Source: Candidatus Kapaibacterium sp.
GTDB taxonomy: Bacteria > Bacteroidota > Ignavibacteria > Kapaibacteriales > UBA2268
Direction of reading: 5' to 3'
NCBI GenBank assembly: GCA_963664875.1
Contig: OY761611.1
Coordinates: 1,920,001-1,984,000 of the forward strand
Length of the DNA stretch: 64,000 nucleotides
A program made the translations under genes and the position numbers. Shown here piece after piece: positions 8,189 through 46,427 of this stretch (position 1 is its first letter; each line of letters starts with the position of its first letter). The notes below the pieces were generated by a model, which was not told where the DNA came from, did not search any database, and saw only the letters and a program-made list of their open reading frames with translations.

Positions 8189-8222
8189 AAAAAAAAAGAG
8201 GAACCCGGTTAAGAGTTCCCCT
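8189..8222 (-). terminator. Rho-independent terminator of the giant adhesin gene
   Basis: Minus strand AGGGGAACTC-TTAACC-GGGTTCCTCT followed by a T run. Confidence 0.8.
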
Positions 8223-8248
8223 TAAGATATTTATCGAAGATTTAGATA

Positions 8249-11200
8249 TTATCTAACAACAACGAAACGTTTAGAAACAGCTTCATTATCGCCTGAGATA
8301 ACTTTAAGAGTATAAGTACCTGCAGGAATCATAGATCTATCCAAATCAATGCTAACTTTATGAAGTCCCATTCCATATTCTTTGTCAAGAATAGGTTGAG
8401 CTACCAAAGTACCTTCTAAGCTGTAAATCTGAATAGTTACCTTACGAGATTCAACCATATCGAGGTCAAATTTCAAATCAGTAACAACCGGGTTAGGTTG
8501 GATTTCAGAAACAGACATAGAAGCAGCACCATTTATAAGAACACTTCTTTCAGCCTGAACTTGTTTGTAACCATCAGAAGCTACGCTTACAAGTCTGTAA
8601 ACATAAGTAGCACCGATAGCAAGAACAGCATCATCATCAGTAAGTTTGTATTTTTTACCGAATTCAGATTCGTTAAGTCCCGCGAGAGCAGAGTTATCTT
8701 CATAAGAAGTAATCATTTCAAACGGTTCCAAACCGGCTTCAGTCATTTCAGCTCTATGAACTTCAAATCCGACATTGTCAGTTTCTCTGATAGTTTCCCA
8801 ATCAAGGAAAGCCTGAGCATCAGCAGAAGTTACATCAAAGCTACGAAGTTCGACGTTTGCATAAGCTTCTTTATATTTAGAAGTTGTAATAGTAGCTGTT
8901 GGACCATCTGCAGCATAAACAACTGTAGACGCTGTAAATGTTGCATCTGAATTAAAAGTATAAAGTTTGAATGTGTATGTTACTAATTTTTGCAATCCTG
9001 TTACATTAATCTGCTGATCAGAACCAAAGTACACAACTCTCGCATTTGCAGTACCACCACCAATCAATGAACCCGTAATTTCATCACAATTGCTTGTATA
9101 AGTTGGAGCACCTATAGAGAAAGCACCATTTGTGTTAGTATATGCAGTTTGAGGAGCCGGAACTGCACTTGGCATTTCAGATCCCTGAATAGCTAACAAT
9201 AACGAGTTTGCACCATTACTATTCCATTGCAATAGGATAGTGCTGCTTGTTTTACTAACTAAATTAAGAGCAGCCGCAGCCGCAGGTGCAGGAGGAGTAA
9301 TATTAAATGTATTACTAATCGCATTTGCAACAAATGGGCTAGCAGGGGTAGCAGTTAAAGCAACTCCAGAAGCTGCATATTGATAAGTCAATCCGCTAAA
9401 TGTAGCAACACCGCTTAACATGTTTGCACTTCCACCATTAGAAATTGCAGTAGTATTAGTAATTGACATATTTACTGTAAATGCAGCATCTGTATCAATA
9501 TTACCGTTTGCATCTTGAGCTTTAACGGTGACATTGTCTTCAACCGGCTCAGCAACGCCTACAGTTGCATTTGTAGGTTGATCCACAAATGCCAATTGAG
9601 TTACTACAACTTGTATTACATTGTTAGAAGCTGCTGTGCTGGATGTATTTGTAAACGTTGTCAACGGAGTTGAATTCGCATCAACTGTTACATTAGTATT
9701 TGCTAAGGTAAATACTAATCGTTTACCATCTGCACCAGCAGGTAATGGGTTCTTAACAGTTAATCTTAAATACATATCGTATGTAGAGTTATCTGCACAG
9801 CTTACTGACAAGTTGCTGAATGTCAAAGCACCTGCTGTAATAACAGCATCACACAATTTTGTTCCTGCTGCGTTAAATAAAGCTGCAGCATGAATATGAG
9901 TATCAAATGCAGCTTGGTTTGAACCTGCAGCATTGATTGTTAATGCAGTAACATTAGTTGGTTTTGTATCTGTATCTGTTGTAATATCATCACGTACAGT
10001 AAGTTTCAATACGCGTGTGCCATTTGTACTTGTTGTTATGTCTCCATTTGTAAGTGAGCTAATGCCATTTGCTTCGTTGCCCGCAAAGACAATATCCGCT
10101 CTTGCATTTGCAGCAGAACACATGTAAACATCGAACAAGTTTGCTTCTGTTCCACCATTAGCAGCTATACCAACAGTGTTTTGACCACCTGTCACGCTTA
10201 CATCTACGTCATCTACGCAAATACCTGCATCTACGATTGTATATGTCATTGTGTATGTCTGGTTGCCGTTGCTCCATGCACCTGAACCGTTAGTAAACGT
10301 GCCGCCTACTGTAGGATCAAATGTAACAACAGGAGCGTTTTGTGTTACATCCATTGGTTGGCTGTAAGTTACAGCAACTGTAAAGTTATTACCGGCATCT
10401 GCATCTTCAACCATCATGTCATTAACAACAATTGAAGTTACATCAGCAGGAGTGTTAGAAATAATAACAAACTCAAAGTTTGCAGGATCTAATACATCCG
10501 TATTACCCAACGCATCAGAAGAGTTAACTTTTACATTTACTCCACCTTCTACAGGACTTGTAGGTACAGTGTAAGAGTAAGTGTAAGTTCCGTTACCAGA
10601 ACCTGAAGCGTATGTTGCTGTTGTATTTGAGTTATCTGCAAATGTCAATGTTACTACAGGTTGATTAGTAACAGCACAGCCTGCATCTGCCAAATCAAAT
10701 GTAATAGATAGGTTGTCACCTTCTACTGCATTTTGCTTAGATACTTCTAAGTTTGACAGCATTGGAGCTGTATTGTCAATCTTGAATTCAGAACCGTCAT
10801 TTGCATTATCTGTAGGTGCGTAAGTTACAGCAATGTTACCTTTAGAATCTACCAAGTTAAATGTAATATTTACATCGCCTGTAGGATCCTGAGGATGAAC
10901 AGTATATACATAGTTAAATACTGTACCTGTAGAACCATCTGTAGTTAAATTACCTACTAATGGTAAACCACTTGAACTTGTCATAGTAACATTAATATCA
11001 CTATGAGCAAAAGTACCGCATCCTAAGTCCTCAGCATTCACTGAGAAATGTATTTGTGTTGCGTTAATTGTAAGCAGCAATGCACCTACACATTCTGCAT
11101 CATCACTATACGCTGACAATACAGGTGCTGTATTATCAATCATAAATGTAGCTGTTTCTGTAATTGTATTGTTAAAGCCGTCAACTGCTGTTACTGTGAT

Positions 11201-14200
11201 TGTTGCTTCGCCAGTATAAGTAGAACCTTGTGGAATTGTATAAGTATATACACCTTCAGATTCTGTTACTGTTGTAGCATTGCCACCGAAAGGTGTTACT
11301 GTTACAGTCAAGTTACTAACAACCTGGTCACAACCTAAGTTAGTTGCTGTTACATCAAATACTAAATTACCATCTAACTCTTTAGATACACATGTTACTC
11401 CCAGTAAATCAATAGCTATATCGAGTGGATTTAGATCTACTGTCATAGCATGAGTTACAGGAGCCAATAGTGTATTACCTAAATCATCACTTGCTGTGAT
11501 ATTGATAATAGGTGCTACATCACCTAGAATTTCTTCCTCTAAATCATCAGCTGCTACTGTATATGTAAATTCATATACAGTAGTTTGTCCTGTTACTGGA
11601 GTCACTGCAGAGATATTAGCAGGAGTACCATTTGTTACTGTTACTGTAATATCGTCTTCGTTAAATGTACCACAACCAACGTCGCTTGCGTTAACTTGGA
11701 ATGTTACTATATCGCCAGGTTCTACGCATGTTGGAGGTGTATTTACTAAAGTAAGTGTTGGTCCTGTTTGGTCAATGCTGTTAACAACATCGCCATTGAC
11801 AGGAGTCATAGCATTACCCTTAGTATCAACTGCATTTACAGTTACTGTACAAGTACCGGTTCCGTTTGCTTCTACGATTGTATGTGTATGAGATACTACA
11901 CCATCGTTGATTGTAAAGTCACCAACTGAAGAGTAAGTAGCATCTGTGCCGTCACTAAAGTCATAAGTTATAGTTACTTCACCAAGATTTGCACAACCTG
12001 CATCTGCAATTGTGAAATCTGTAGTAATTGTATTACCAGTACCTAAACATTGACCTGAAGTAGCATTATTTGTGATTGTTACATCACCTGCAATTGCCGG
12101 TGCTGTATTATCAATCATAAATGGAGCTGTTTCTGTAATTGTATTGCCGAAGCCGTCTACTGCTGTTACAGTAATTGTTGCTTCACCAGTGTATGTTGGA
12201 CCAACCGGAAGTGTATAAGTATAAGTTCCTTCACTTCCTGTAAGCGTAGTAGCTACAGTTTCACCTGTTGCTTGTACTGTTACAGTTAAGTCCTCAATAT
12301 CTGTATCACAACCTAAGTTAGTTGCTGTTACATCAAATACAAATGTACCATCAGTAATTTGAGATACACATGTTGTTTGTGGTAAATCAATAGCTATATC
12401 GAGTGGATTTACATCTACTGTCATAGCGTGAGTTACAGGAGCTAATAGTGTATTACCTAAATCATCACTTGCTGTGATATTGATAATAGGCGCTACATCC
12501 ACAGGAGTTGCCACTGTACCTGCTACTGTATATGTAAATTCATATACATTAGTTTGACCATCAACTGCAGATACTGTAGAAATATTAGCTGAAGTACCAT
12601 CAGTAACTGTTACTGTAATATCGTCTTCGTTAAATACGCCACAACCAACGTCGCTTGCGTTAACTTGGAATGTTACTACATCGCCAGGTTCTACGCATGT
12701 TGGAGGTGTATTTACTAAAGTAAGTGTTGGTCCTGTTTGGTCAATGTTGTTAACAACATCGCCATTGACAGGAGTCATAGCATTACCCTTAGTATCAACT
12801 GCATTTACAGTTACTGTACAAGTACCGGTTCCGTTTACTTCTACGATTGTATGTGTATGAGATACTACACCATCGTTGATAGTAAAGTCACCAACTGAAG
12901 AGTAAGTAGCATCTGTACCGTCACTAAAGTCATAAGTTATAGTTACTTCACCAAGATCTGCACAATCTGCATCTGCAATTGTGAAATCTGTAGTAATTGT
13001 ATTACCAGTACCTAAACATTGACCTGAAGTAGCATTATTTGTGATTGTTACATCACCTGCAATTGCCGGTGCTGTATTATCAATCATAAATGTTGATGTT
13101 TCAGTTACTGTGTTAGCAAAGCCGTCAACTGCTGTTACAGTAATTGTTGCTTCACCAGTATAAGCAGAACCAGTTGGAATTGTATAAGTATAAGTTCCTT
13201 CACTTCCTGTAAGCGTCGTAGCTGCAGTTTCACCTGTTGCTTGTACTGTTACAGTTAAGTCCTCAATATCTGTATCACAACCTAAGTTAGTTGCTGTTAC
13301 ATCAAATACAAATGTACCATCAGTAATTTGAGATACACATGTTGTTTGTGGTAAATCAATAGCTATATCGAGTGGATTTACATCTACAGTCATAGCATGA
13401 GTTACAGGAGCAAGTAGTGTATTACCTAAATCATCACTTGCTGTGATATTGATAATAGGTGCTACATCCACAGGAGTTTCAACTGTACCTGCTACTGTAT
13501 AAGTAAACTCATAATTATATCCATCACCATTTACTGGAGTTACTGCAGAAATATTAGCAGGAGTACCATTAGTTACTGTTACTGTAATATCGTCTTCATC
13601 AAATGTACCACAACCAACGTCGCTTGCGTTAACTTGGAATGTTACTATATCGCCAGGTTCTACGCATGTTGGAGGGTTAGTAGGGCTTACTAAAGTTAGT
13701 GTAGGTTTAGAATTATCTATAGTAAAGGCAGAAGATTGAACTAAGTAACCTTCCATTCCTTTGCTATCTACAATGTTAAATTCTACAGTATATGAGCCAG
13801 TAACATCTGCTGCATCTACAGTATAAGTAAACTGCAATTTGCCATTTACTTCATTCGGTTCGCCTATGTTACCATTGATTAAGTTATTACCATTGTAGAT
13901 ATCAACTTCAAATCCATTGTTTTCTCCATCCCACAAAGCTATATCTTGAGTTGCACAGCCAAGATTTTCATAATCTACGGCAAACGTAACTGTTTGATCT
14001 GCTTTATAGCATGTTGGAGTACTTATCAATGTAAAGTTATCAACTACAGGAACTGAGTTATCAATACTGAATGTAGCAAGGCTAGCATTTGTATTAGCGT
14101 TACCCAAACCATCTGCTGCAGTTACAGAGACAGTTGCTGTTCCTGTGCCGTCGTTAGCTGTTGCTAAGTAAGTAGCAGTATAGTTAGGATAAGTACCTGT

Positions 14201-17200
14201 TACTGTAGCAGCCACTGTATTAGGTGCTTCTTTAGGCAAAGTAATAGTTACAACCGGAGTTGCACCTGCACCACCGCAAGAACCATCTTCTACTGAGAAC
14301 TCAATACTTACAGTTTGACCTGCTTTATAACAGTCATCTTCATCAGGAGTCATATCAGTAAATGCAATTACAGGGCCTGCATTATCAAGTGTAAATGTAG
14401 GAGTTACATCAATAACTGTATCATCCTGACCATTAACTGTACCAGTCACATCTTCTTCAGCCATTTCTGCTGTGTTACCTGCAGGATCAGCTATTATCAA
14501 TGCGATTGAATATGCCCCTTGATCGTGTGCTGTTTGAGGACTTGCAGGGAATGCAAATGTTACAGAAGCATCTCCGGTTTGATCATTATAAGTTACATCT
14601 GTTCCTGTAATCGTTGTACTACCATTTACTGCCTCTGCGCTGATATTACCTGCTGCTAAAGCAGAGCAGATATCATTATCAGTTACATTAAATGTCATTG
14701 TTACTGACTGACCGTCTTTAATGCAATTATCGTCAAGTGCGATAGTAGAAACAACCGGACCATCAGTATCTACATTAAATGTAGTAGAAGCAGCATCAGA
14801 TTCATTATCAGAATCATCAATGTAATCTACTTTCAAAGTATATGTACCTGAAGCGTAAGCTGAAACATCTAATGTACCGGTATAAGTATTAACTGTTTCA
14901 TTAGAAGAACTTGATGCAACAGAGATGTTTCCACCTACCTGAACTGCTGGAATAGCTGTAGTCCAAATAGAAACAGTCGCATTGTTAACACCATTTTCGT
15001 CGCAATCAGTATCATCAATTGTAAAGCTATAAGCTATTTCTGTATTTGAGCAAGCTGTTACTGTACCTAAAGCAATAGCCGGAGCATCATTATCAACAGT
15101 AATAGAATAAGTCAAGTCTTCTGACTCATTCATAGCACCATCGTAGATACTCAATACTACTGATTTTGAACCTTCTTCATCATTTGCCACTGTCAATGGA
15201 ATAAAGTACATGCCTGCATAATCGCCTGCGCCTTCTATTACTCCATCATCAGTTACGATAGAATTAGCAAAAGTAGTGCTTGTCATAAAGAATTGACCAG
15301 AAACAGGAGTAGTTTCTACTACATCAGAAGCTACGATATCACAACCGGCATCTGAAGGTGCAACACCCAAGTAGTATGAACCACCTTGAATACAGTTGTC
15401 TGTTACTTCAGAGTAAACGCCACCTGCTTCAGTATATAATGCAATCTGATCAAGATTTTCATTTACTGCTGCAAAAGCTGGAGCTGTCTTATCTACAGTA
15501 AATGTAGCAATTTCTTCATCAGAATTGCCTGCATCGTCTGTATAAACTACTATCAAGTCATACTGACCATTTGCCAAACCGGAAATATCAATATTACCTG
15601 AGAAAGTACCTTCAGAAATTGTCATTGTACCATCAGCGTCGCCTGCAGCAGGATTACCTGTTAGTTCTATCCAATATTCTGCAGCATTAATACCATCGCC
15701 ACATGTAGAGTTATCTGCTACTGTGAATGAGTATGGCAATAAGCTATTTACACAGTTATCAGAAACCGTGATAGCAGATACTACAGGAAGTGCTGTAGAA
15801 ACATGGAAATTAACTGCCAACTGAGTAGAAGCATTATTTGCATCATCTGTATAGTTAACTGTTACTTGTTTGTCGCCTTGAGCTACATCGCTTAATAACA
15901 ATGTTGCTTCAACTGTCCAAGTTCCGTCTTCGTTATCTGTTACATTAGTTTGTACATTGTTTGCTGTGCTTGGATCAGTAAACGATAAATTATTCAAACC
16001 ATCATAGCAATCTGTTCCAGTTACTTCTTCAGTTACTAAGAATGAAAATGCTAATGTACCGGTCTGATTCAAACAAGCGTCTGTAATAGACGATAGTGAA
16101 AGAGCAGCAGGTGTATTATCAACTGTAAAGCTAATGCTACCTGCAGATACTGCACCATTACCGTCGTTAACTGTAGCTGCGATAGTATAAAGACCATCGT
16201 AGTTTACTACTGGCTCTGTTGTGTTTTCAGGAATATCAATTGTATATTCCCAAGTGTATTTAGTATCTACAGGGCCGGTTGGTTGATTTGCACTAAGCTG
16301 TGCATTCAAACCACCTAAACCTGTAAACTCGATTGTTATATCATCTTGATCTAAACAACCGGCAGCATCAATATCAGCTGATACTGTAAGCGTGATTGTT
16401 TGAGTATGATTATAACATCCACCGTCTTGACCGCTTGCAATAGCTACGCTAGTTGGTTTCAACTGATCTAAGCTAAAGTCAACATCTTCAAAATCAAATT
16501 CTGTTGATGTTGTACCTAAACCGTCTGTTGCTGTTGCATAAACATCAACATCGCCGCTACCGTCAACAGTTTGGATAGTATAAGTAAACGGATAAACATT
16601 ACCTGAAGGCGTGCCTACTGTTGCAGTTTCAACACCACCAGGTAAATCAAGATATACAGTTACTGCATTTACTGGTGAGCAACCTGTTTGATTTACTGTC
16701 ACCGTACCAGAGATAACTGCACCTGTAGTCAAACATGCATCAGCAATACCATCAGCAAAGTCCATTGCAGTGATACTTGGAGCATCATTATCTACTGTAA
16801 ATGTAGCTTCAGAGTATATAATACCATCGATAAATCCGGTTGCAGGATCTTCTGTGCCGTCAAAATCAGCAGCATTACCATTATCATCATCAATAGTAAG
16901 TTCTACTTGGTAAGGGCCGTTTATAGCTGCCTGTGGTACAGTAAATTCTACTGTTACATCATAACCTGTTTGTGGTGTTTCACCATCAACGTCAGTTACT
17001 ACACCTGCAATGCTAAATGGTCCGTTCCAGCTTGTTCTTGCATCTGCATCGATGTTGCCTGCATTAAATGTACCGCAACCTGCTTCTTCTACGTGGAATG
17101 TAGCTGTTACAACAGTTGTTGGAGTTGGCTCTTCCTCATCACCATCATCAGTGTATTTCACGCAAGATTTATCAAGTTGAATATTTGATACTACAGGACC

Positions 17201-20200
17201 TGCATTATCAACGTAGAATTTATCTTCTGCTGTAATTGTAGCGCCTACTGCTGTACCTGTTGCAGCTGGTTCTGCACCATCCATTGTTGCGTAATTGTCT
17301 TTATCATCATCAATTACTAAGCTAACTGTATATAAACCGTCAGTTGTATTGCTTAGTATCGTAAATGTTGCTGTTACATCATAACCATCATTTACATTGC
17401 CTGTAAGTGATGTAATACTACCATTCAATGTAGTTGTTCCATTTGTAGCAGTAGCGCTCACGTTAGCTGCATCAAATGCACCGCAACCGTCTTCTTCTAC
17501 GTGGAATGTTACATCTACTTCTGTTGTTGGATTTTGTCCGCCGTCTTCAGTATAAGCAACACATTGGTCTGCTTCTGCGATATCAATATCCGATACTACA
17601 GGACCAACATTATCTACGTCTATAGAATAAGTTAATTCTTCTGATTCATTCAACAAACCATCGAACAAGCTCAACGTGATTTCTTCTGTTCCATCATCTG
17701 TTGAAGCAATTGCTAATGGGATGTAATACATTCCGCCTACCTCTATAGGTGTGTCTACTGTATTAGCAAATGTTGAAGCTGAAACATAGAACTGGCCTGC
17801 CACTGCTTGGTTTGGAGTATATACTACTGATGTACCTACGATACCATCGCAACCTGCGTCGCTTGGCTCTACGCCTAAGTAGTAATTACCATCAGTTACG
17901 CAAGCGTCTGTTACTAATGTGTAATCTTGACCATCATAAGTATATAATGCAATCTTAGCAGGAGCATTTACTTCTGCAAAAACAGGACCGGAGTTATCAA
18001 CTCTAAACGTTGGTACTGCTGTAATAGTAGCACCTGCTGCGTTTCCTGTTGCAGGATCTTCAACTGCCATTGTTGCAACGTTATCTTGGTCATCATCTAC
18101 TGTCAACGTAATTGTATATTCACCTTCAACGTCTGGAATAGTGAATGTACCTGTTACAGTATAGCCATCATTTGCATTACCTGCGACAACTATTGTAGCA
18201 GGATTGTCAGTTGAAGCAAGTGTTAATGTTGTGCCGCCATTTACTGCTGCAATTGTAATATTGCTTGCATCAAATGTACCACAACCTGCTTCCTCTACGT
18301 CAAATGTTACATCTAAAGTAGTTGTTGGAGTACCTTCCACTTCAGTGTATTTCACGCAAGTTTCGCTTACTGCAATATTTGATACTACAGGGCCTTCGTA
18401 GTCAACACTAAATGCGTCTGCATCTACTACCTGGTCTTCTACTGAGTTGCCTGCGTTATCTGTTACGTTCAATCTTACGCCAATCGCTTCGCCTTGTGGC
18501 TCGTCGCCTTGGATTACGTAAGTAAAGTCGAAATGATTATTTTGATCATCATAAGTATAAGTAGAAGCTATAGCAACGTCTGTTGCGCTTGTCAACGTGC
18601 GGAATGTTCCGCCTTCTGCTGTGTAAAGTTCTACTTCGATGTTTGTTTCATCAATATCAGAACAAACTGCATTATCATCTACTACTATATCAGTAAATAC
18701 TGCATCTGCTCCATTGCCTAAGCAACCTAATGCAAATGCTGCATTTGGAGTTACTGTAGGAGCATCTGTATCTAATACCAAATTCAATGCTTCATCTGCA
18801 TCAGCAACTACTGCATTTAAACCATGGTTCAAATAACCTGTAACTGATAGTAAAGCACCATTTGGATCTTCTGAATCTACTGTATAAGTAAATTCGTAAG
18901 TACCGTCAGGATACAAACCACCTACAGGAGCAGGGTTGCCAGCTGCAGGAGTCATCCATACTGTACTGTTGTCAGAGAATTCTAACTCTGCTTCTACGTT
19001 TTCTACACCACCACAAGAATTTTCATCTACATTTACATTTAATGTAGCAGTGATTACTTTACCTGTACCTAAGCAAGTACCAACTGCATTTGTTGTAGTT
19101 GTTGTAGCTATAGTGTGATTTAATGGATCTATTGTAAACTCAAAGCCTGCAGGATCATAAAGATTACTTAAGTTACCTTTTGAATCTGTAGCTAATACTC
19201 TTACATGTTTTCCACCTTCATCACCCTGAGGTATTGTAAATGTATATTCAAATACATAGTCATCACCTACATTTGAAACAATTTGTGAGAATGTAAGATT
19301 TGCGTTAAATACCGGCAAGAATACAAATATCTTACCAGGATCTGCTGTTTGAAGCTCTGTCAAAGCACCTGTCAAAGTACCACAACCTAAATCAGTAACG
19401 CCAATTTGTAATTTGTAGTTACCTGTGGTAATACAATCTACTACGTTGTCGCCTTGATCTAAAACAGTAATTGATGTTACTGTTGGTTTTGTATTATCAA
19501 TTTGGAAGTACTGAGCATCTACGTCTGATGATGTGTTTTGTGCATCATCTTTTATTGTTGCAGTTATGCTTGCATAGCCTGTCGCATGGTTGCTTGCTAC
19601 TGTTGCCCGGTAGTTAAATGTACCGGCAGGAGCTTCATTTAGAAATGCTACTGGAATAGCTACAGGTGTTGCTGATGCATCTTCCAAAGTAATTGTAATA
19701 TCGTCTTGGTTTAAAGTACCGCATGTTGAAGCGTCTGTTACAACTACACTAAAGTCAACAGTACCTGCAGTTTCGCATGTACCTTTTGCTGATAATGTAA
19801 TAGTTGGAACTGCATTGTCGATACTAAAGCCATCGTTGAGAACAACTGCAACAGGATGGTTACCTGCATCATCCATCACATCAACTGATATAGTTGCTGC
19901 ACCGTTTGTTTCTTCACCAACAAATGTATAAGAATAAGTAAATACATAAGGATCAGCTACTGTACCTGTGCCTGTTCTGCCAACGTAAGTTGCAGAATAA
20001 TTGTGTGCACCTGCATCAATGATTGTTACTTCAATATTTGTTGGACTTACAAATGTGCCACAACCTTCTTCTACTACTGAGAATGAGAACTCAATATCTC
20101 TTGAATCGCCGAAGCAAGTGCCAAGAATTTGATCATCTGTGATAGACAATGAAGCCGCATTTACTGCAGGCTCTACTTTATCTATTGAGAACAATTCTGT

Positions 20201-25186: not shown

Positions 25187-25290
25187 AGAGCGTCTCCTCA
25201 ATAATTAAAAAAAACAGAATTTAGTATCAATTGCCCATAGTCATGGCACGCAAATTGTGGAAAACTATCGCTTAATTACGCGCCAAAGCA

Positions 25291-25330
25291 TACAAAACAA
25301 AGAATAATTAGTCAGCATAGCTAATTATTC
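25291..25330 (-). terminator. Terminator-like hairpin in the upstream leader of the giant adhesin gene
   Basis: Perfect 10-bp inverted repeat GAATAATTAG (25302-25311)/CTAATTATTC (25321-25330), followed on the minus strand by TTTGTTTTGT; stem is AT-rich. Confidence 0.4.
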
Positions 25331-25543
25331 AATCAAAATGTAAACAATTTTCTTAAATCTACAAACACATTTTTTTGTTAAATCTGCATTAAGTACATTC
25401 ACAGTTTAGTCAAGTAACTGAATACAAACGAGTTAAAGCTGATAAGAAATTTTGCAAATTACGTGTTTTCCCGTATGTATTTTTTCAGTTTTTACAGATA
25501 TAATATCCGATTGTTGGCGAATATTGTCAAATAGAAAATAATT

Positions 25544-25560
25544 ATCAAATATAGTGCCTA
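25544..25560 (-). promoter_or_regulatory. Possible sigma-54 (-24/-12) promoter for the giant adhesin
   Basis: Minus strand TAGGCACTATATTTGAT vs consensus TGGCAC-N5-TTGC; correct GG-N10-G spacing, two mismatches. Confidence 0.3.
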
Positions 25561-25817
25561 TATTGCCGGCGATAGCAATAAAATGTTAAATAGATTAAGA
25601 TAATTCATAGATATATATTATGTATATCACGTATATTTTTTGTAAGTATTTTTATTACTACAGAGGAATATTTATGTGGAAAACTATGGGAGGATTGGGG
25701 GAAATAAAAATACTATAGGCTATGTACAACAACAAGGGACTGTCTCATAAGTAAAACAATCTATATTAACTTGACGATTACTCAATACATTATGTGATCT
25801 GAGTTAAGCAAAATGTA

Positions 25818-26013
25818 GAGGCTGTCTCTAAGTCATAATTTGCAAAATATTCTTGATGTATGTAAGTTTTACCGACAGCTGAAGCAGTCGGTTGCACTTG
25901 TGTAACTCATTGCAACCGCATGCTTTAGCTTGCGGTAGAAGATAATATAACGTTTGTTTTTCCTCTACTTTTACAAAAGAGTATGACAAAACTCAGACTG
26001 CTGAGACAGCCTC
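25818..26013. mobile_element. MITE/REPIN-like element: 11-bp terminal inverted repeats enclosing an inverted REP doublet
   Basis: GAGGCTGTCTC (25818-25828)...GAGACAGCCTC (26003-26013); inside, ACCGACAGCTGAAGCAGTCGGT-22 nt-ACCGCATGCTTTAGCTTGCGGT (25871-25936), similar to 54417-54482. Confidence 0.65.
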
Positions 26014-26022
26014 AAGCTGGTC

Positions 26023-26104
26023 GCCCTTACAGGGCTCTATATTTCAATGACTTATCTTTCCCGGGGCGTTGCCCCGGGCTGATATATTTGAGGCTTTCAG
26101 CCTC
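26023..26104. repeat. REP-like hairpin triplet (GCCCTTACAGGGC / CCCGGGGCGTTGCCCCGGG / GAGGCTTTCAGCCTC)
   Basis: Three GC-rich palindromes in AT-rich intergenic DNA; layout resembles REP clusters associated with IS200/IS605-like tyrosine transposases. Confidence 0.65.
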
Positions 26105-26108
26105 CTGT

Positions 26109-26261
26109 GAAAAATATAAAAAAACCGTGGGGAAATCTATAATACAAGCGTGGGGTGTGAAACCTATACAACCGTGGGGGGTGTGAAACCTATACAACCG
26201 TGAGGTTAACCCCACGGCTGTAAAAAAATATAAAAAAACCGCGGGGTTTTCCCCACGGTTG
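26109..26261. repeat. ACCGTGGGG-family REP hairpins with reiterated left arms
   Basis: ACCGTGGGG-like arm repeated at roughly 22-26 nt spacing (TACAA(G/C)CGTGGGG..GTGAAACCTA), then full hairpins ACCGTGAGGTTAACCCCACGG and AACCGCGGGGTTTTCCCCACGGTT; AAAAATATAAAAAAACCG duplicated; same hairpin at 51797. Confidence 0.75.
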
Positions 26262-26286
26262 GATAAATAATTCAATTTACAATTAC

Positions 26287-27357
26287 TTAGTCTTTTTTCG
26301 TAGTAACCTTGATCACATTAGAAAAGCCTGTGATGCCGGATTTGAGCATAGCCCGCACGCGGTAGTAGTACGTTTTTCCTGCTTCCAGATTGTCAATATC
26401 CCAATCATTTACTGGCATGATAGTGATGTTCGAGTAGTTAGGGAGCAGCTGAGAAAAGTTTTCGTCCGTAGCTACATCGAGGATATAATTTTTTGCATCT
26501 TCGACCTTCTCCCACTGAGCAAGGAAGTGATCGCCGCTAACATCTTTAGCTTCGAGAGCCTTAGGAGCAGGCGGCAGTGCAGTGTAAGTGCGAACAAAGC
26601 GAGAATCTTTCTTTTTAGGCAAAGCGTAAACAGTGTTTTCACCGGAGCCGTTAGCTTCTATCGCAGCAATAGTATAAGTCTTACCTGGTTTTAAACCTGA
26701 TAAGCGAATGCTTGCTTGCGTTTTACCGGTATTTTTTTCGATACATGATGTTTTAGTATCCTTAACGAGAGATTGTCCGTAAGTGGCATTAGGGATTGCC
26801 TCGTACTTGTTTTTCGGTAGTTTTATATCATTTCCCTCGGCAACAAAGATAAAAGTAGCATCGCCATTGCCTCGCATATAAGAAAGCGTAATAGATCCGT
26901 CGGAATTCTCGCTGATAGCAAGATTACGAGGAGTAATGCTTGGAGATTTAGGTAAAGTCATGACATCAAAAGACTTTAGCAAAAGCGAATAGTCCGGTGC
27001 TTTCTCATTATTAAAGCTATAGACATCTAATTTATATTTAGTGCCCGGAACTAAGCCTTTTATATCGAGCTTATTATTTTTGACTTTCCCTGTAAAGATC
27101 GGGTAATTTTTTTTGCCGATAATATTGTTTTCAGCCTTAGATATGTCCGCCACAGGCTTATAGACAGTGCCGTTAGTAGGCGGGAAATTAGATATTTTAT
27201 CTTCCCTAAGCACAAGCAGGAAAGCAGACTGCCCGGCAGACTTGATAGTAAACGAAAGGGACTCCTGCTCAGCATCGACATTAGTAACTTCATCGATGGC
27301 AAAAAGCGAGATAGAAAGGGCGATGAAGAGCGTCAAAACAGCGAAAATGTTTTTCAT
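26287..27357 (-). CDS. Secreted fibronectin type III domain protein (two FN3-like modules shared with the giant adhesin plus a canonical FN3), no T9SS CTD
   Basis: Signal peptide from MKNIFAV (ATG 27357); GLVPGTKYKLDVYSFN, RGNGD...GLKPGKTYTIAAIEAN, C-terminal AQWEKV..AKNYILDVATDENF...NLEAGKTYYYRVRA. Confidence 0.85.
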   Translation of the reverse strand: MKNIFAVLTLFIALSISLFAIDEVTNVDAEQESLSFTIKSAGQSAFLLVLREDKISNFPPTNGTVYKPVADISKAENNIIGKKNYPIFTGKVKNNKLDIKGLVPGTKYKLDVYSFNNEKAPDYSLLLKSFDVMTLPKSPSITPRNLAISENSDGSITLSYMRGNGDATFIFVAEGNDIKLPKNKYEAIPNATYGQSLVKDTKTSCIEKNTGKTQASIRLSGLKPGKTYTIAAIEANGSGENTVYALPKKKDSRFVRTYTALPPAPKALEAKDVSGDHFLAQWEKVEDAKNYILDVATDENFSQLLPNYSNITIMPVNDWDIDNLEAGKTYYYRVRAMLKSGITGFSNVIKVTTKKD

Positions 27358-27414
27358 AAGCGTATCATTTGAGTTAAACATATAAACAAATATACTAAAA
27401 GTAGGCGATAATAT

Positions 27415-27453
27415 AAAAAAAAACGCGGCCTCTTATAGAAAGAGACCACGTTT
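27415..27453 (-). terminator. Rho-independent terminator after the fibre gene
   Basis: Minus strand ACGTGGTCTCTT-TCTAT-AAGAGGCCGCGT plus T run. Confidence 0.8.
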
Positions 27454-27489
27454 AATATATTCAATCTATTGTGAAATAGATTATGATTC

Positions 27490-30400
27490 TTATTGGATAA
27501 TTCTCCAAGCACCATTGATGTACAAGCATTTAACTGTTTGTTGAGTTGCAACACCAGTACCTAATACTGTAATTGCACCAGCAGAACCACCAATTGCTGC
27601 ATTGTTGTAGATATAAAGGATTTTACCATCTTGACCTGCAGGGAAATTAGCTGAGATAAATGCAGCACCGTCACCACCATTATAAGTAAGAACAGTTTGA
27701 TTAGCAGCAGCTAAAGTTGCAATTGAGTTAAATGAACCAGTTGACAATTGTATGTGACCATCCATAATGCGCAAAGCTTGACCTGTAGCATGAGTTGAAG
27801 TAATTTGCAACGCATCTCCTTGATCAGCTTGAATAATAGCTCCAATTCCAGTACCAGTGTTAGTACCATCAGTTGCATCAACATTTAATGCAGTACCTGC
27901 ACCTGTTACATATGCATTAACTGCAGTACCAGTAGTTGCAGTAGCATTTACCGCCATACCAGTAGATGCAGAAGCACTGATTGCTTGTCCAGCAGCAGCA
28001 AGGTTGGTTGCAGCAATTGCTTGGGTACCTGCACCAGTAGAAGTTGCTACGATTGAAGGATTCGCAAGAGAATTAATTGTTACAGTGTTATTGAACGTAG
28101 AAGTACTACCTACAGCCAAAGTACCAGTAGTTGCAACGTTACCAGTAGTAGCAGCAACAGTGAACTGAGTAGTAGATAAAGAATTACCAGTAATAGCACC
28201 AGAAGCAGTAACAGCACCAGTATTTGCATCTAGAACTACAGAACCAACACCGTCAGTTACAGTAAGATCTGAATCAAAAGTAGTTGCACCGTTAACACCA
28301 CCAGGTAAAGCAACAGCACCAGTGAATGAAGAAGTACCAGCAACAGTGAAGTCAGTAACAGCAGCAGCATCAGAAACTACTACACCACCAACGATACCGC
28401 CAGTAAGAGTAGAAGCACCTGTTACCTCTAGAGTACCACCAACTGTAGTATTACCAGTTACACCTAATGTGCTACCTAAAGTAGTTGCTCCAGTTACACC
28501 CAATGTATTGTTTACTTGAGTTGCACCAGCTACAGTCAATGCATCACCTAAAGTAGTTGCACCTGTTACACCTAATGTACTACCTAAAGTAGCAGCACCT
28601 GTTGCACCAAATGTATTATTTACTTGAGTTGCACCAGCTACAGTCAAAGTGTTGCCTAAAGTAGTTGCACCTGTTACACCCAATGTGTTACCTAAGGTAG
28701 TTGCACCTGTTACACCTAATGTACCAGAGAAAGTACCATTCGCAGCATTTACATCAGCCATAGTAGCTGTACCAGTTACACCCAAAGTGTTATTGATTTG
28801 AGTTGCACCAGCTACAGTCAAAGTGTTACCTAAAGTAGTAGCACCGGTTACACCTAATGTATTGTTGATTTGAGTTGCACCATTAAGAGTAGTTGCACCA
28901 GCTACTGACAAGTTAGCAGCAAAGCTACCATTACCAGTTACGCCTAATGTACCACCGATAGTAGTGTTACCATCAACATTTAAAGTAGCGTTTAATTCTG
29001 TGTGACCGTCAACATTAACTGTACCATCTACGTCGAAATCTGAAGTAGCACCGATTAAGTTAACATCACCATCGTAATTAGTAGTACCAGTTACAGTGAT
29101 TACGTCAGCAGCGTCGTTACCAAGAGCAACGTTAGCGTTAGCAGCTAAATCACCAGTTAAAGTAGTTGCACCAGTTACAGCTAAAGTGTTACCTAAAGTA
29201 GTTGCACCAGTTACGCCTAAAGTACCACCGAAAGAACCGTTACCAGAGAATGTACCATCTACTGCACCAACGTTACCAGTGAATGTACCATTTACAGCAC
29301 CAAGGTTACCAGTAAGAGTTGCATTTACTGCACCAACGTTACCGGAGAAGTTACCATCTACTGCACCAACGTTACCAGTGAATGTACCATTTACAGCACC
29401 AAGGTTACCAGTAAGAGTTGCATTTACTGCTGAGATATCACCAGTTGCAGCAATATTACCAGTTACATTTAAGCCTGCACCAGCTGTTACTAAACCAGTA
29501 AAATTACCAGTAGTAGCATTCAATGTACCACCTACGAAATTACCGTTAAATTGGTTCGCAGTTACATGACCGTTAGAAGCATCCAAAAGAATTTGATTTG
29601 GTGCAGTACCAACTGTCAAGTTACCGGATACAGTAAGAGCACCGATAGTTGCATCATTTACAGTCAAATCAGCAGTACCATCAAGAGCACCAGTGATTTG
29701 AGCAGTAAGAGCTTGAAGCAAACCTGTCAATGTAGCATTAGTAGCATTAACATCTGTAGCATTAACATCTGTAGCATTAACAGTTGTAATGTTACCAGTT
29801 GTAGAGTTTACTGTAGTGATATTACCAGTAGTAGAGTTCAAAGTAGTGATAGTACCAGTGTTAGCTTGGATATCATCAACTACTAAGTTACCGTTAGGCA
29901 TATTTATTTGAGCGTTAGCGCCAAGCATGTTGATTTGTGCGTTAGCGCCATTCATAATAATCTGAGCATTTGGATTAGTTGCTGCATTGAAAGTCAAGTT
30001 TTTAGTAGTAATGTTAACATCACCATCTACTGTTAAATCTTGACCAACAGTCATATCTTGAGAGATTTGACCATTTTGAGCAGTCATCTGACCATTGATT
30101 ACAGTATTACCATTAACAGTTGCGTTACCGTTAAGAGTTGTGATACCATTTACAGTCAAAGCAGTAAGAGTAGAAGTACCATTAAAGTTACCTAAGAAAT
30201 TAGGAGCAGTTACATCTACAGTGAAAGTAGGAGCTACGTCAGTGTAAACTGTAGCAGCATCTACAATTGCTCTGTCAATAATATCATTATCAACTACATC
30301 ACCTGCTAATTGATCAACATCTAAATCGCCAGTAATGTTAGCAGCAGTACCAGATACGTTACCAGTTACATTACCAGTTAAGTTACCCCAGAACATAGGA

Positions 30401-32748
30401 GCTGTTACATCTACAGTAAAAGTAGGAGCTACATCTGTATAAACTGTAGCAGCATCTACAATTGCTCTGTCAATAATATCATTATCAACTACATCACCAA
30501 CCAATTGGTCAACATCTAAGTCACCAGTTAAGTTAGTTGCACTAGTAGCTGTTGCAGCATTACCAGTTAAGTCACCAATAAACATAGGAGCTGTTACATT
30601 AACTGTAAAAGTAGGAGCTACGTCAGTGTAAACTGTAGCAGCATCTACAATCGCTCTGTCAATAATATCATTATCAACTACATCACCAACTAATTGGTCA
30701 ACATCTAAGTCACCAGTTAATGCGATAGCTGCATCAGCAGTACCAGTCAAGTCACCAACAAAATGAGGAGCTGTTACATCATTTACAAATGTAGGAGCAA
30801 CTGCATCATAAAGAGCAACGTTAGCTGTCAAACGAGCATCAGCTAAAGTACCAGTAGTGATGTTTGTAGCATTGATATCAGTGATAGCAGCACCGTTACC
30901 TGCGAAAGTAGCAGCATTAACAGCACCTGTTACATTTGCATCACCACCAACAGTGATATCATTTGCAATTGTGAAAGAACCAGTTGAAATTTGACCAGCA
31001 ACATTTACGTTACCATCGAAATCTACATCTTTATCAAATGTAAGGTTATCGCCGGCAGCAGGAGCAGTGATAGTGATTGCTTCAGCGCCTTCGCCTACAG
31101 TGATAGTGTTAAGGATTTCTAACATGTGACCGTGAGCTGTAGAGTTCCAGTAGATATCGCCTTTAGTTACTAAAGCGATTTTACCAGGAACATTTGAAGT
31201 ATTTTCGATAACTACAGCACCAGTTGGATTTGGATTAGCCAAAGTAACCCAACCGTCAACGTTTTCGTTGTTAGCAGTGAAGTGACCTGCAACTGCAAGA
31301 CCATTGTCAGAAGTAGTAGTTACTTCCATACCTTTGTGAAGAACGTTAGCAGTAGCACCAACAACATTGTTGTCAACTTTAACGCCGGCAGTCATGTAAC
31401 CATTATCTTCACTGATATTAGTCATGAATTTAGCGCCATAAGAAGTGCCTTCCAAAGTAGTAAGGTTAGTAGTTACTAACAAAGCACCTTGAGAAGATTC
31501 GCCGTCAGTTGTACGGTCGATGTGAGCAGTTGCAACGTTATCGCCACCACCCATAACTTTCAATGCTTCACCGTTTGTATCAGTTTGAGGAACTTTTACA
31601 TAGATACCGCCGCCTTCTACATCAGTTTTAGTGATGTCGATAGCAGTAACGTTTTCAGTTGGACCATTGTGAGTAATAGGAAGAGTGAAGTTAGCATCTT
31701 TCCACATAGGAGCTTTTGCAATTGGATCCCAAGTCATTACTTGACCTTGAACAGGAACTGCATCATAAGAGAATTCCCATTTGCCATCTTTCCAGAAGAT
31801 AACCTGACCATTTACATCAGCACCGTCAACCATGTCAAGTGCAGTTGGAGCCATCCAAGCAGCATTGCCATTAGCGTCAACCATTAATTTATATCCTTCC
31901 ATCGCACCGGCAGTACTCAAGTACATAGGAGTGATAGAACCAGGAGCTACTAAATCAAGAACAGCACCCCATGCAGCAGTGCCATTAGCACCAACATACA
32001 ATACTGTACCTTCAGCAGCACCAGTAGTATTCAAGTTTTCTAAAGCTACTGCACCAAGACCAATTTTGTCAGCAGTTACTGCGCGAGGAGCAATAATTGG
32101 ATCTGGGTAAGTACCAGTCAAATCACCAGAAGCAGGACCAGATGGAGTAGTAGATACGTTAGGAGCTAACATATTCTGAGTTATACCACCATTAGGGATG
32201 TTATTTAAAACAGCTTCAGGTTTGATAGTTGGGTTAGGGTAAGTACCATCGAGGTCACCACCAGCAGCACCCATTGGAATAGCCATTACGTTAGGATCTA
32301 ACATAGCTTGAGTAACACCACCATCAACAACACCAAGAGCTACAGTTGCTGTGTCAGCCATAGAAGCTGATTTTGCCATACCTGCATAAGGTACCAAAGA
32401 CATAGCAGTTCTTGCGTATGGATCGCCACCGCCAACTGTTACTTGCAAGAAGTATTGTTTGTTGAAAGGTAAGTTAATTGGAGTAGTCTGACCCAAGTTA
32501 ACGTTGAAGTAACCTTCAGTTACTTTAACATTTTGAGTTTCAGTCCAAATTGCAGTACCACCTGCTTCGCTTTCGAAGATTTCGAAAGTCATTGAAACAT
32601 TTTGGTCTAAAGCTTTTTTGTCTTCATTTACCAATGTACCTTGGTAGTTAATTTGGTCTGGCAAATCAGCCGGTGCAGCTTGCACTCTACCAAATGGTGC
32701 TAAAACGAAGGCAACGATAAGTAAACCGAGAAGAAGAAGTCTCTTCAT
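27490..32748 (-). CDS. Secreted phage-tail-fibre-like / trimeric beta-fibre protein (1752 aa), no T9SS CTD or autotransporter barrel
   Basis: Sec signal; N-terminal module PDQINYQGTL...TFEIF...GGTAIWTETQ...GYFNVNLG...FLQVTV...SLVPYA typical of FCB fibre proteins; GGDLDGTYPNP-like motif x2; 12-aa TLGVTGATTLGN and 10-aa NGTFTGNVGA repeats; AGGAG RBS. Confidence 0.8.
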   Translation of the reverse strand: MKRLLLLGLLIVAFVLAPFGRVQAAPADLPDQINYQGTLVNEDKKALDQNVSMTFEIFESEAGGTAIWTETQNVKVTEGYFNVNLGQTTPINLPFNKQYFLQVTVGGGDPYARTAMSLVPYAGMAKSASMADTATVALGVVDGGVTQAMLDPNVMAIPMGAAGGDLDGTYPNPTIKPEAVLNNIPNGGITQNMLAPNVSTTPSGPASGDLTGTYPDPIIAPRAVTADKIGLGAVALENLNTTGAAEGTVLYVGANGTAAWGAVLDLVAPGSITPMYLSTAGAMEGYKLMVDANGNAAWMAPTALDMVDGADVNGQVIFWKDGKWEFSYDAVPVQGQVMTWDPIAKAPMWKDANFTLPITHNGPTENVTAIDITKTDVEGGGIYVKVPQTDTNGEALKVMGGGDNVATAHIDRTTDGESSQGALLVTTNLTTLEGTSYGAKFMTNISEDNGYMTAGVKVDNNVVGATANVLHKGMEVTTTSDNGLAVAGHFTANNENVDGWVTLANPNPTGAVVIENTSNVPGKIALVTKGDIYWNSTAHGHMLEILNTITVGEGAEAITITAPAAGDNLTFDKDVDFDGNVNVAGQISTGSFTIANDITVGGDANVTGAVNAATFAGNGAAITDINATNITTGTLADARLTANVALYDAVAPTFVNDVTAPHFVGDLTGTADAAIALTGDLDVDQLVGDVVDNDIIDRAIVDAATVYTDVAPTFTVNVTAPMFIGDLTGNAATATSATNLTGDLDVDQLVGDVVDNDIIDRAIVDAATVYTDVAPTFTVDVTAPMFWGNLTGNVTGNVSGTAANITGDLDVDQLAGDVVDNDIIDRAIVDAATVYTDVAPTFTVDVTAPNFLGNFNGTSTLTALTVNGITTLNGNATVNGNTVINGQMTAQNGQISQDMTVGQDLTVDGDVNITTKNLTFNAATNPNAQIIMNGANAQINMLGANAQINMPNGNLVVDDIQANTGTITTLNSTTGNITTVNSTTGNITTVNATDVNATDVNATNATLTGLLQALTAQITGALDGTADLTVNDATIGALTVSGNLTVGTAPNQILLDASNGHVTANQFNGNFVGGTLNATTGNFTGLVTAGAGLNVTGNIAATGDISAVNATLTGNLGAVNGTFTGNVGAVDGNFSGNVGAVNATLTGNLGAVNGTFTGNVGAVDGTFSGNGSFGGTLGVTGATTLGNTLAVTGATTLTGDLAANANVALGNDAADVITVTGTTNYDGDVNLIGATSDFDVDGTVNVDGHTELNATLNVDGNTTIGGTLGVTGNGSFAANLSVAGATTLNGATQINNTLGVTGATTLGNTLTVAGATQINNTLGVTGTATMADVNAANGTFSGTLGVTGATTLGNTLGVTGATTLGNTLTVAGATQVNNTFGATGAATLGSTLGVTGATTLGDALTVAGATQVNNTLGVTGATTLGSTLGVTGNTTVGGTLEVTGASTLTGGIVGGVVVSDAAAVTDFTVAGTSSFTGAVALPGGVNGATTFDSDLTVTDGVGSVVLDANTGAVTASGAITGNSLSTTQFTVAATTGNVATTGTLAVGSTSTFNNTVTINSLANPSIVATSTGAGTQAIAATNLAAAGQAISASASTGMAVNATATTGTAVNAYVTGAGTALNVDATDGTNTGTGIGAIIQADQGDALQITSTHATGQALRIMDGHIQLSTGSFNSIATLAAANQTVLTYNGGDGAAFISANFPAGQDGKILYIYNNAAIGGSAGAITVLGTGVATQQTVKCLYINGAWRIIQ
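28420..29430 (-). repeat. Intragenic 36-bp (12-aa TLxVTGATxLGN) and 30-bp (10-aa) tandem repeats of the fibre shaft
   Basis: Recurrent ACCTAAAGTAGTTGCACC(T/A)GTTACACC; 90-bp duplication at about 29250-29430. Confidence 0.85.
30200..30720 (-). repeat. Three copies of an acidic 63-65-aa unit TGDLDVDQLVGDVVDNDIIDRAIVDAATVYTDVAPTFTV
   Basis: ATCATTATCAACTACATCACC at 30283, 30478 and 30667 (spacing 195 and 189). Confidence 0.9.
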
Positions 32749-32817
32749 TACTTTGCACTCCTAAACGATGTTATACAAAAAAATCTCATTTTATTATCTA
32801 ATTTCTTATTCGAATGA

Positions 32818-33402
32818 TTATTTAGAAACAATCATAACTGTACGCACAGACTGAGTATCAAAAGTAGAAGCGCCAACAGGTCTAACTACTACTTCACACA
32901 AGTAAGAACCGCTTGCAACATCAGCGCCACTGTTATCAGTAGCATCCCATGTTTGAGAAACCATACCGGATGTTTGTCCTACGTTGAATGTTTTGATAGT
33001 TTTGCCACTCATGTCGTAGATATTGATAGTTACATCACCATAACCCGGCATTTCGTATTCGATAGTTGTGTTTTGTGCAAACGGGTTTGGAAAGTTTTTC
33101 AAACCGTCGTTTGTAATAACAACATTATCATCTACTGATGTTCCAGGTTCGCCCGGAGACCAAAAACCTTGGTACAATGTCCAGAGTTTCCCTTCAACAA
33201 CTGTACCTGCATCACGCTTGCCGATTGCAGTCTGTCCCATAACGCCGGAAAGTGTTTCCCCATTGTTATTTGAAACAGCCACCATGCCACCGGAACCGAT
33301 CACAGATCTTTCGAGAGTAATCTCTTCCTGAGCAACAGCAGAATCCGCTATAAACGGAAGTGCTATCCCACAGACCAAGATATACTTCATAATTTTTTTC
33401 AT
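32818..33402 (-). CDS. Small T9SS type A/FlgD-like CTD protein (signal peptide + ~60-aa module + CTD)
   Basis: SVIGSGG...LSGVMGQTAIG...LYQGFW module, then NFPNPFAQNTTIEY...IYDMSGKTIK...WDATDNSGADVASGSY; AGGAG RBS. Confidence 0.85.
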   Translation of the reverse strand: MKKIMKYILVCGIALPFIADSAVAQEEITLERSVIGSGGMVAVSNNNGETLSGVMGQTAIGKRDAGTVVEGKLWTLYQGFWSPGEPGTSVDDNVVITNDGLKNFPNPFAQNTTIEYEMPGYGDVTINIYDMSGKTIKTFNVGQTSGMVSQTWDATDNSGADVASGSYLCEVVVRPVGASTFDTQSVRTVMIVSK

Positions 33403-33513
33403 GTGAACACTCCTATATACTGACTATGTATATTATTGTAAATTGCTTTTTTATAACGACTTATTTATATTTCAAAGGTTTCTGTAAACCTGCTTGTATT
33501 GCTTAAGTTACAG

Positions 33514-33530
33514 TACAATAATTATGCCAA
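33514..33530 (-). promoter_or_regulatory. Putative sigma-54 (-24/-12) promoter of the small CTD protein-fibre operon
   Basis: Minus strand TTGGCATAATTATTGTA = TGGCA(T)-N5-TTG(T), about 110 nt upstream of the ATG at 33402. Confidence 0.6.
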
Positions 33531-45361: not shown

Positions 45362-45373
45362 GGTGTTTGTCCT

Positions 45374-46417: not shown

Positions 46418-46427
46418 GATAAGGTCC

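Follow-up and report, generated by a model that had tools for sequence, protein, structure and literature searches.

How could a long surface fibre leave the cell by way of the secretion system of type IX (T9SS) if it carries none of the C-terminal sorting domains (CTDs) by which the cargo of that system is recognised? This question is raised by a locus in a 64,000-nucleotide stretch of contig OY761611.1 of Candidatus Kapaibacterium sp. (hereafter the window). Type A CTD cargo of T9SS includes giant adhesins, as is known from work on Porphyromonas gingivalis and Flavobacterium johnsoniae. In the window, four co-oriented open reading frames (ORFs) of 194, 1752, 364 and 5650 amino acids (aa) lie on the minus strand within 8249-33402, two of them with such a CTD and two without, and the initial annotation read their products as four parts of one extracellular appendage. 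We find that the conserved unit is the first pair, genes 1 and 2, not four genes. We suggest, with a confidence somewhat short of an even chance, that this pair is a sigma-54-controlled two-gene operon in which a ~20-kDa CTD-bearing partner carries or anchors a long, CTD-less, beta-helical fibre via T9SS. The four genes are the following.

32818-33402, minus strand: gene 1, a 194-aa protein with a signal peptide, a ~65-aa N-domain, a linker and a T9SS type A CTD (ORF, Pfam, NCBIfam)
27490-32748, minus strand: gene 2, a 1752-aa fibre with a signal peptide, a head (residues ~25-240), a beta-helical repeat shaft and a ~90-aa C-terminal domain, without a CTD
26287-27381, minus strand: gene 3, a secreted FN3-type protein of 364 aa (start probably M9 at 27357), without a CTD; a paralogue of the gene 4 head
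8249-25201, minus strand: gene 4, a giant adhesin of immunoglobulin (Ig)-like repeats, with an FN3-type head, Ig-like modules with paired Cys (~36) and a T9SS type A CTD

A Sec signal peptide can be read by eye at all four N-termini; those of genes 1 and 4 have a basic n-region, a hydrophobic core and an Ala-X-Ala-type site. The four secreted-type genes are thus where the initial annotation placed them, and its assignment of CTDs to the 194-aa and the giant protein, and to neither of the other two, also stands.

The relatives of gene 1 were gathered by scanning 185,579 species, one genome for each, with an alignment of 13 family members. This yielded 22 loci, all of them records of metagenome-assembled genomes (MAGs). 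The closest are MAGs labelled Candidatus Kapaibacterium or Chlorobiota, Kapaibacterium being placed by NCBI in Bacteroidota, inside the Bacteroidota/Chlorobiota group. One locus (L022) matches via the CTD alone and was left out; the other 21, from Kapabacteria, Ignavibacteria and Chlorobiota MAGs, contain true members of the gene 1 family. In 20 of these 21 loci gene 1 is followed, on the same strand and after 48-124 nt, by the gene of a large protein with homology to the head of the gene 2 fibre over its first ~240 residues; in the 21st (L005) the contig stops 139 nt past gene 1. The identity of the gene 1 homologues ranges from 34% to 82% across loci, and the adjacency of the fibre gene is kept even at 34-37%. 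The protein trees of gene 1 and the fibre have 9 of 17 splits in common, compared with a maximum of 5 in 1000 label shuffles, which shows co-inheritance, not co-evolution. Furthermore, all 22 loci lie on different contigs and an rsmB homologue adjoins in 16 of the 21. The pair is therefore old, vertically inherited and not mobile: a single-copy chromosomal locus of Kapabacteria/Ignavibacteria/Chlorobiota-type lineages. Surveyed in this way, genes 1 and 2 are linked across deep divergence and genes 3 and 4 only loosely.

The gap between genes 1 and 2 is 69 nt, and a hairpin scan found no terminator in it; the two genes are therefore probably one operon. Ribosome-binding sites of the AGGAG type precede three genes, as had been reported, namely genes 1 (33410-33414), 2 (32758-32762) and 4, and gene 3 has none. 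Two elements upstream of gene 1 may bear on its control.

33515-33529, minus strand: sigma-54-type -24/-12 motif TGGCATAATTATTGT, lying 113 nt upstream of the ATG of gene 1 (motif scan)
33592-33605, minus strand: conserved element AAATATCGTAATTT, some 75 nt farther upstream than the sigma-54-type motif (pattern search)

The canonical sigma-54 promoter consensus is TGGCAC-N5-TTGC, with the -24 GG and the -12 GC. The proposal that a promoter of this type heads the locus receives no significant support from the window alone, in which two matches were counted where 0.72 would be expected, a count that 19 of 100 shuffles reach. For the gene 1-2 operon, however, the proposal is upheld by comparison across genomes. 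In 16 of 21 loci the gene 1 homologue has the pattern TGGCA[CT]N5TTG[CT] 75-161 nt upstream. The background is 8 matches in 640,646 nt, or 0.0025 expected per 200 nt, and the promoter call is convincing because the motif recurs in this way. The -12 element is TTGC in nine of the 16 matching loci and TTGT, as in the window, in seven; L014 and L018 have a TTGG variant, and no motif lies within 200 nt in L010, L016 and L021. The block TGGCATAATTATTGT is invariant in the window and in L001-L004. Farther upstream, the pattern AAAT[AG]T[CT]GTAA[AT]TT stands 73-76 nt from the -24/-12 motif in eight of 22 regions (the window, L001-L004, L006, L007 and L009), out of a total of 10 matches in 672,042 nt of all loci on both strands. 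AAATATCGTAATTT is a plausible candidate site for an activator (enhancer-binding protein). No Sigma54_activat-type gene is present among the scanned ORFs of the window. Sigma-54-type motifs were also seen just ahead of the second fibre gene of L018 (at 15425) and 145 nt past the fibre gene of L008.

The product of gene 1 shares with type A CTD cargo, as does that of gene 4, the combination of a Sec signal peptide and a C-terminal type A sorting domain. It differs from such cargo in being hardly more than the CTD and a 65-aa domain of no known family. The CTD scores 34.6 bits with TIGR04183 (cut-off 23) and 42.1 bits with FlgD_ig (cut-off 27), and 26.5 bits, just under the cut-off of 27, with PF18962; a CTD profile finds it at the C-terminus of all 21 gene 1 homologues. 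An exhaustive profile search puts the family at about 85 clusters at 50% identity, with lengths all about 156-227 aa. The N-domain has no match in Pfam, NCBIfam or PHROGs. Its motifs VIGSGGM...GQxAI...QGFW are invariant in the 13-member alignment, and among all sequences gathered a profile of this domain alone gave 113 matches, none of them in a protein that exceeds 260 aa. A form of the N-domain fused into long proteins was found neither there nor among the best 150 representatives, in which the long proteins match just through repeats of the CTD-type domain. A search for neighbours of the N-domain in the ESM Atlas gave unnamed clusters, 0.84 at best, and no usable lead.

Within the genus, the gene 1 protein is 77-82% identical, compared with 57-61% for the adjoining RsmB and 55-62% for the whole fibre. 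In a structural model built from 81 aligned sequences the CTD reaches a pLDDT of 92-98 and the N-domain 43-66. So poor a stand-alone model of a domain with invariant motifs fits a domain that may need a partner in order to fold. A short, constrained domain that does not fold confidently alone and precedes a single client would have the expected look of a docking module.

The absence of a CTD from the second product of the operon was seen in several ways. Neither the window fibre nor the FN3 protein has a T9SS CTD of type A or B in Pfam or NCBIfam, in which respect both depart from type A cargo. A complete fibre gene is present in 11 of the related loci. A Pfam CTD was found in none of 12 full-length fibres, that of the window among them, the CTD profile of the gene 1 family matched no fibre, and PF18962 occurs in none of the 120 fibre relatives listed with precomputed domains. 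Each of the 20 aligned fibres has a signal peptide.

We read the architecture of this protein as an attachment head, a variable shaft and a binding tip. The head comprises the signal peptide, an INYQG-type domain and two GGDLxGxYPxP motifs, and is 37-93% identical across 19 relatives. The shaft consists of tandem repeats (periods 33-36, 99-108 and ~190 nt), and its length and content vary between genomes, complete fibres measuring 1487-3118 aa. The only sensible Pfam match of the window fibre is a bactofilin-type beta-helix at 25.5 bits, below the cut-off of 27.9; the L002 fibre reaches 45.9 bits with the same model. Residues 1217-1338 are 34-38% identical to a cyanophage 'YadA domain-containing structural protein / fiber'. 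The last ~90 residues follow a common pattern in all 12 complete fibres and are modelled as a small beta-rich domain with block-mean pLDDT of 75-93, the preceding 110 residues staying below 50. The fold matches of this C-terminal domain are weak (TM 0.2-0.4) and are leads at most: a StcE Ig-like insert (E 4e-4), the phage Mu fibre-chaperone complex (E 6e-3), tailspikes and many Caudovirales tail proteins, with no T9SS CTD among the top 50 matches in the PDB. Its language-model neighbours at 0.93-0.94 include a tailed-phage cluster.

A word-indexed homologue search with the last 133 residues of the fibre returned the query as its sole match, a PDB sequence search with the fibre returned nothing, and a PDB search with the head profile returned a cadherin alone (E 0.11). 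Polyubiquitin rows obtained from the PDB with the C-terminal profile had no stretch above threshold and were treated as repeat artefacts. There is no family model in Pfam, NCBIfam or PHROGs for the terminal domains of the fibre or for the N-domain of gene 1. Outside the sampled loci, 102 of 119 fetched relatives from other Bacteroidota carry the fibre head at their own N-terminus, many being annotated as DUF5907; many head-aligning relatives carry PF19264 (DUF5907) among their precomputed domains, and the window fibre itself has no PF19264 match at E <= 0.01.

In its layout, with a conserved end for attachment, a shaft of variable repeats and a small tip domain at the C-terminus, the fibre is like phage tail fibres and tailspikes. 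This likeness invites a deflationary explanation, namely that the adjacency of the two genes is without function, that the fibre is a phage or tailocin remnant, or that it is a periplasmic structural protein. The weak resemblance to phage fibres favours this explanation, as does the bactofilin-type match, sub-threshold in the window and 45.9 bits in L002. Against it, the pair is adjacent in 20 of 21 loci and has a conserved promoter in common. Moreover, unlike phage fibres, these proteins carry signal peptides (20 of 20), stand in a housekeeping chromosomal setting with no phage structural genes, and have no Peptidase_S74 chaperone domain, and for the fibre PHROGs gave unnamed families alone, in the repeat region. 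One flank of the four genes holds PqqD-like, M20 peptidase, DJ-1 and patatin-Omp85 fusion genes, and the other rsmB, HAD hydrolase, exonuclease/GIY-YIG protein, TetR and TonB-dependent receptor genes. We consider this explanation very improbable. A second comparison, with the trimeric autotransporters of the YadA type, rests on a repetitive beta-rich stalk with YadA-like short repeats. It ends at the C-terminus, at which the fibre has no membrane-anchor barrel match in Pfam; export therefore cannot be type Vc.

These features, an operon conserved under a sigma-54-type promoter whose small product bears a CTD and whose large product bears none, are the ground on which we propose a mechanism. 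Sec would take both proteins to the periplasm, as read from their signal peptides. There the N-domain of the small protein would bind the fibre, the conserved fibre head being the probable site. The CTD would then route the small protein through T9SS, which might bring the fibre out, dock the fibre head at the surface, or both. The variable shaft would point outward, and the conserved C-terminal tip may bind a target. On this proposal the gene 1 protein would be a T9SS-routed partner of the fibre, either an adaptor or an anchor.

The idea that a CTD-less part is exported or anchored through a CTD-bearing partner was already present in the initial annotation. It fits genes 1 and 2, which are adjacent in 20 of 21 loci and have a promoter motif in common; for any pair among the four products a physical interaction can be proposed only conditionally. 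The gene 1 protein was also folded in complex with two parts of the fibre, its head and its C-terminal domain, from alignments of 81, 20 and 12 rows. The score was 0.04 against a mark of 0.32, and in a run without controls it counts neither for nor against binding. The fibre entered in single copies, and the prediction offered no trimer interface, the relevant one if the fibre is a trimer.

Export of a passenger on a signal-bearing partner has been described elsewhere in biology. In the accessible portion of one source, hitchhiker or 'piggyback' export is described for Tat and peroxisomal import only (PMC9251779). According to the same source, T9SS substrates depend on a C-terminal domain that is folded, and proteins in the folded state are what the translocon SprA transports (PMC9251779). 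The mechanism proposed here would resemble Tat and peroxisomal hitchhiking in that a protein lacking the relevant signal would travel folded on a partner that bears it (PMC9251779). It differs in the machinery and in the membrane, and for T9SS it is a proposal of ours.

Several points weigh against our proposal. The binding of the gene 1 protein to the fibre is deduced from sequence and gene order. The low model confidence of the N-domain is equally compatible with self-assembly, or with a simply poor model. The -12 element of the window is TTGT rather than the canonical TTGC, the full form being TGGCAT-N5-TTGT with correct spacing. No gene for the T9SS core (SprA, PorV, PorU), for RpoN or for an activator lies within the 64-kb window. 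Also, in a literature search with subscription journals outside its reach, we found no published precedent for a CTD-less protein that rides a CTD-bearing partner through T9SS, no description of a pair of the gene 1-2 type (a small CTD protein with a CTD-less giant), nothing on DUF5907, and, among the papers listed, nothing relevant on T9SS in Kapabacteria/Ignavibacteria, on T9SS with sigma-54 and adhesin, or on T9SS with tail fiber. With respect to the secretion system itself, a third CTD cargo gene at 59713-62850 (plus strand), whose product has an arylsulfotransferase-type domain, Lcl_C domains and a Por_Secre_tail CTD, shows that the T9SS pathway is in use.

The remaining objections concern the fibre, and they lead to an alternative in which the pair is linked but the small protein is no export adaptor. 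The fibre would then exit by a signal of its own that has escaped recognition, in the C-terminal ~90 aa or in the head, and the small protein would anchor it at the surface, cap it or help to assemble it, or regulate its display. Three loci (L006 at 16035-19379, L007 at 16483-20190 and L018 at 15690-16725) contain a second fibre paralogue downstream, with a variant head and the same C-terminal pattern and without a small partner gene of its own. The 102 head-bearing relatives from other Bacteroidota record no CTD either, and such fibres may leave the cell without any adaptor. In addition, the pattern of the C-terminal domain is conserved in all 12 fibres and the domain folds confidently. Nevertheless, this domain matches no CTD profile and has no T9SS CTD among its top 50 fold matches in the PDB, it looks more like the tip of a phage fibre, that is, the binding end, and no outer-membrane transporter gene adjoins the gene 1-2 pair in the window. 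We regard self-export as possible but rather unlikely.

We return to the proposal of a T9SS-routed partner in order to set it beside a known case of a dedicated helper. Gliding adhesins of the SprB/RemA type have a type B CTD and an adjacent PorP/SprF-like partner. The present pair is similar in that the display of a very large surface adhesin would depend on a small, dedicated, adjoining gene. It is different in that the matches returned by NCBIfam for the four proteins include no type B CTD, no PorP/SprF-like gene is a neighbour, and the partner is itself secreted cargo rather than an outer-membrane barrel. The pair is, in these terms, a variant within the T9SS-associated surface adhesins. 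The strongest form of the proposal would make it the first case of hitchhiker export and anchoring via T9SS, with a small protein, made of a CTD and a 65-aa docking domain that would fold on its client only, that carries or tethers a 180-kDa, CTD-less fibre derived from a phage tail fibre, under sigma-54 control, as a core locus across the Kapabacteria/Ignavibacteria/Chlorobiota-type lineages. In that full form we hold the claim to be doubtful, albeit a real possibility.

What, then, of genes 3 and 4? Gene 4 encodes a giant Ig-repeat adhesin of the conventional T9SS kind, separate from the operon. Its ORF gives 5650 aa from a TTG; the more likely start is an ATG at 25186, seven bases behind GAGGAG, giving 5645 aa. 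The CTD scores 39.7 bits with PF18962 (cut-off 27) and 23.7 bits with TIGR04183 (cut-off 23). Ig-like repeats are recognised in the first half by Big_13 (PF19077, 55.6 bits) and Big_3_3 (PF13750, 50.6 bits) and in the second half by Big_13 (31.3 bits), all against cut-offs of 27, so that the protein counts as a Big_13-type Ig-repeat adhesin. The protein contains 36 pairs of cysteines 14-30 residues apart, with a median spacing of 113 aa, and its earlier description as a 'stapled' Ig rod is a fair one. It falls in the size class of SprB, given as 6497 aa in the accessible text of PMC9251779. A PDB sequence search with 1000 residues of the giant protein found nothing. Three tandem units of ~969 nt, of about three Ig modules each, lie at 11113-13788 with 68-93% nucleotide identity and suggest that the rod has recently grown by duplication.

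Gene 3 stands free as a paralogue of the gene 4 head. Residues 159-350 of the FN3 protein are homologous to residues 44-233 of the giant head, a two-domain module (hhalign probability 95.6%, E 1.2e-8). The initial annotation had seen this module at both ends of the giant protein; the N-terminal half of that claim holds, whereas no homology is detectable to the C-terminal end (hhalign probability 3.6%).

The explanation from which this work began, in which all four products co-assemble as one appendage of adaptor, fibre, FN3 linker and giant Ig rod, has several points in its favour. All four products are of secreted type and encoded on one strand, the FN3 protein is homologous to the giant head, and the gene order is kept in L002-L004, the same-genus loci that reach as far as genes 3 and 4. 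Furthermore, in L019, a distant Kapaibacterium genome whose gene 1 protein is 36% identical, a 1256-aa protein with Big_13-like repeats, a weak CTD match and a head homologous to the giant head (hhalign 97.6%, E 3.8e-12) is encoded directly after the fibre gene. The adjacency of fibre and adhesin therefore recurs in two clades.

However, the gene that follows a complete fibre is far from constant. Among the 11 loci, the FN3 gene and giant-adhesin homologues follow in three only (L002-L004, with gene 1 proteins of 77-81% identity), the smaller FN3-headed adhesin in one (L019), a second fibre paralogue in three and nothing related in four, so that an adhesin is found downstream in four of 11. 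As for the unrelated cases, L017 has an aminotransferase, the downstream genes of L009 and L016 have no BLAST match to the four window proteins, and L008 has no ORF in the 576 nt downstream of the fibre gene. A possible relation of the downstream proteins of L006 and L018 to the giant head was tried, and none was found. In view of these differing contents, the slot after the operon is variable, often but not always holding another surface protein. Moreover, the FN3 gene is confined to the genus, within which conserved synteny is expected from descent alone.

Putative terminators also set these genes apart from the operon. Such elements had been proposed between the transcription units; hairpins are present after genes 2, 3 and 4, and, as noted above, none divides genes 1 and 2.

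27421-27453, minus strand: intrinsic-terminator-like hairpin 3' of gene 2, 14 pairs and then a T-run (hairpin scan)
26237-26260, minus strand: intrinsic-terminator-like hairpin 3' of gene 3 (hairpin scan)
8190-8225 (approximate), minus strand: hairpin and T-run 3' of gene 4 (read from the sequence, outside the hairpin scan)

Genes 3 and 4 have terminators and upstream regions of their own and are split by a 1.08-kb spacer, and the sigma-54-type motif near gene 4 is on the opposite strand. The four-part appendage is thus not borne out in the form in which it was stated, and we judge it improbable. Genes 3 and 4 share a variable surface-protein slot after the operon and are not fixed parts of it.

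The spacer (25202-26286) has some features of its own. The motif TGGCACGCAAATTGT at 25244-25258 (plus strand) is an inverted sigma-54-type motif, 43-57 nt upstream of the giant gene start and pointing into the spacer. It is kept in L002 (17998, minus), L003 (17502, minus) and L004 (17609, minus), inside a conserved block of ~250 nt, and might drive a divergent or antisense transcript. By eye, the aligned upstream regions contain this inverted copy only, and no correctly oriented sigma-54 motif for gene 4. The gene 3-proximal ~300-400 nt of the spacer are absent in L003 and L004 and align poorly with L002. They abound in GC-rich hairpins and in direct repeats of short units (23 nt and 26 nt, 26110-26265), and look like an inserted repetitive element; an Rfam scan of the whole window, spacer included, gave zero matches.

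Elsewhere in the window, a gene for a DarT-family ssDNA thymidine ADP-ribosyltransferase is found at 63037-63675 (plus strand; Pfam E 1.7e-54). It presumably belongs to a DarTG toxin-antitoxin or defence pair, the other member of which would lie at or past the window end. Three tandem paralogous genes of ~345 aa occupy 44327-47468 (minus strand), two with weak matches to BNR/sortilin-type repeats and the third without a Pfam match, at a local G+C of 0.32-0.33 compared with ~0.38. The patatin-Omp85 fusion gene in the flank mentioned above (2442-4892, minus strand) encodes an 816-aa protein in which a patatin-like phospholipase is joined to POTRA and an Omp85 barrel.

T9SS cargo is now recognised by its own C-terminal domain, and the gene 1-2 pair would make partner-mediated transport or anchoring testable. 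If our proposal is true, predictions of secreted proteins in Bacteroidota and their relatives would widen, and T9SS biology would gain a new principle. A role would likewise be assigned to a widespread and unannotated superfamily of proteins that bear signal peptides and resemble tail fibres, of which more than 100 head-sharing relatives are on record. Even if the fibre exports itself, the locus would remain a clear instance of a surface fibre, as yet uncharacterised, that has a surface partner dedicated to it. The conserved sigma-54-type promoter also offers a way into the control of surface structures in a lineage that is known here from MAGs alone.

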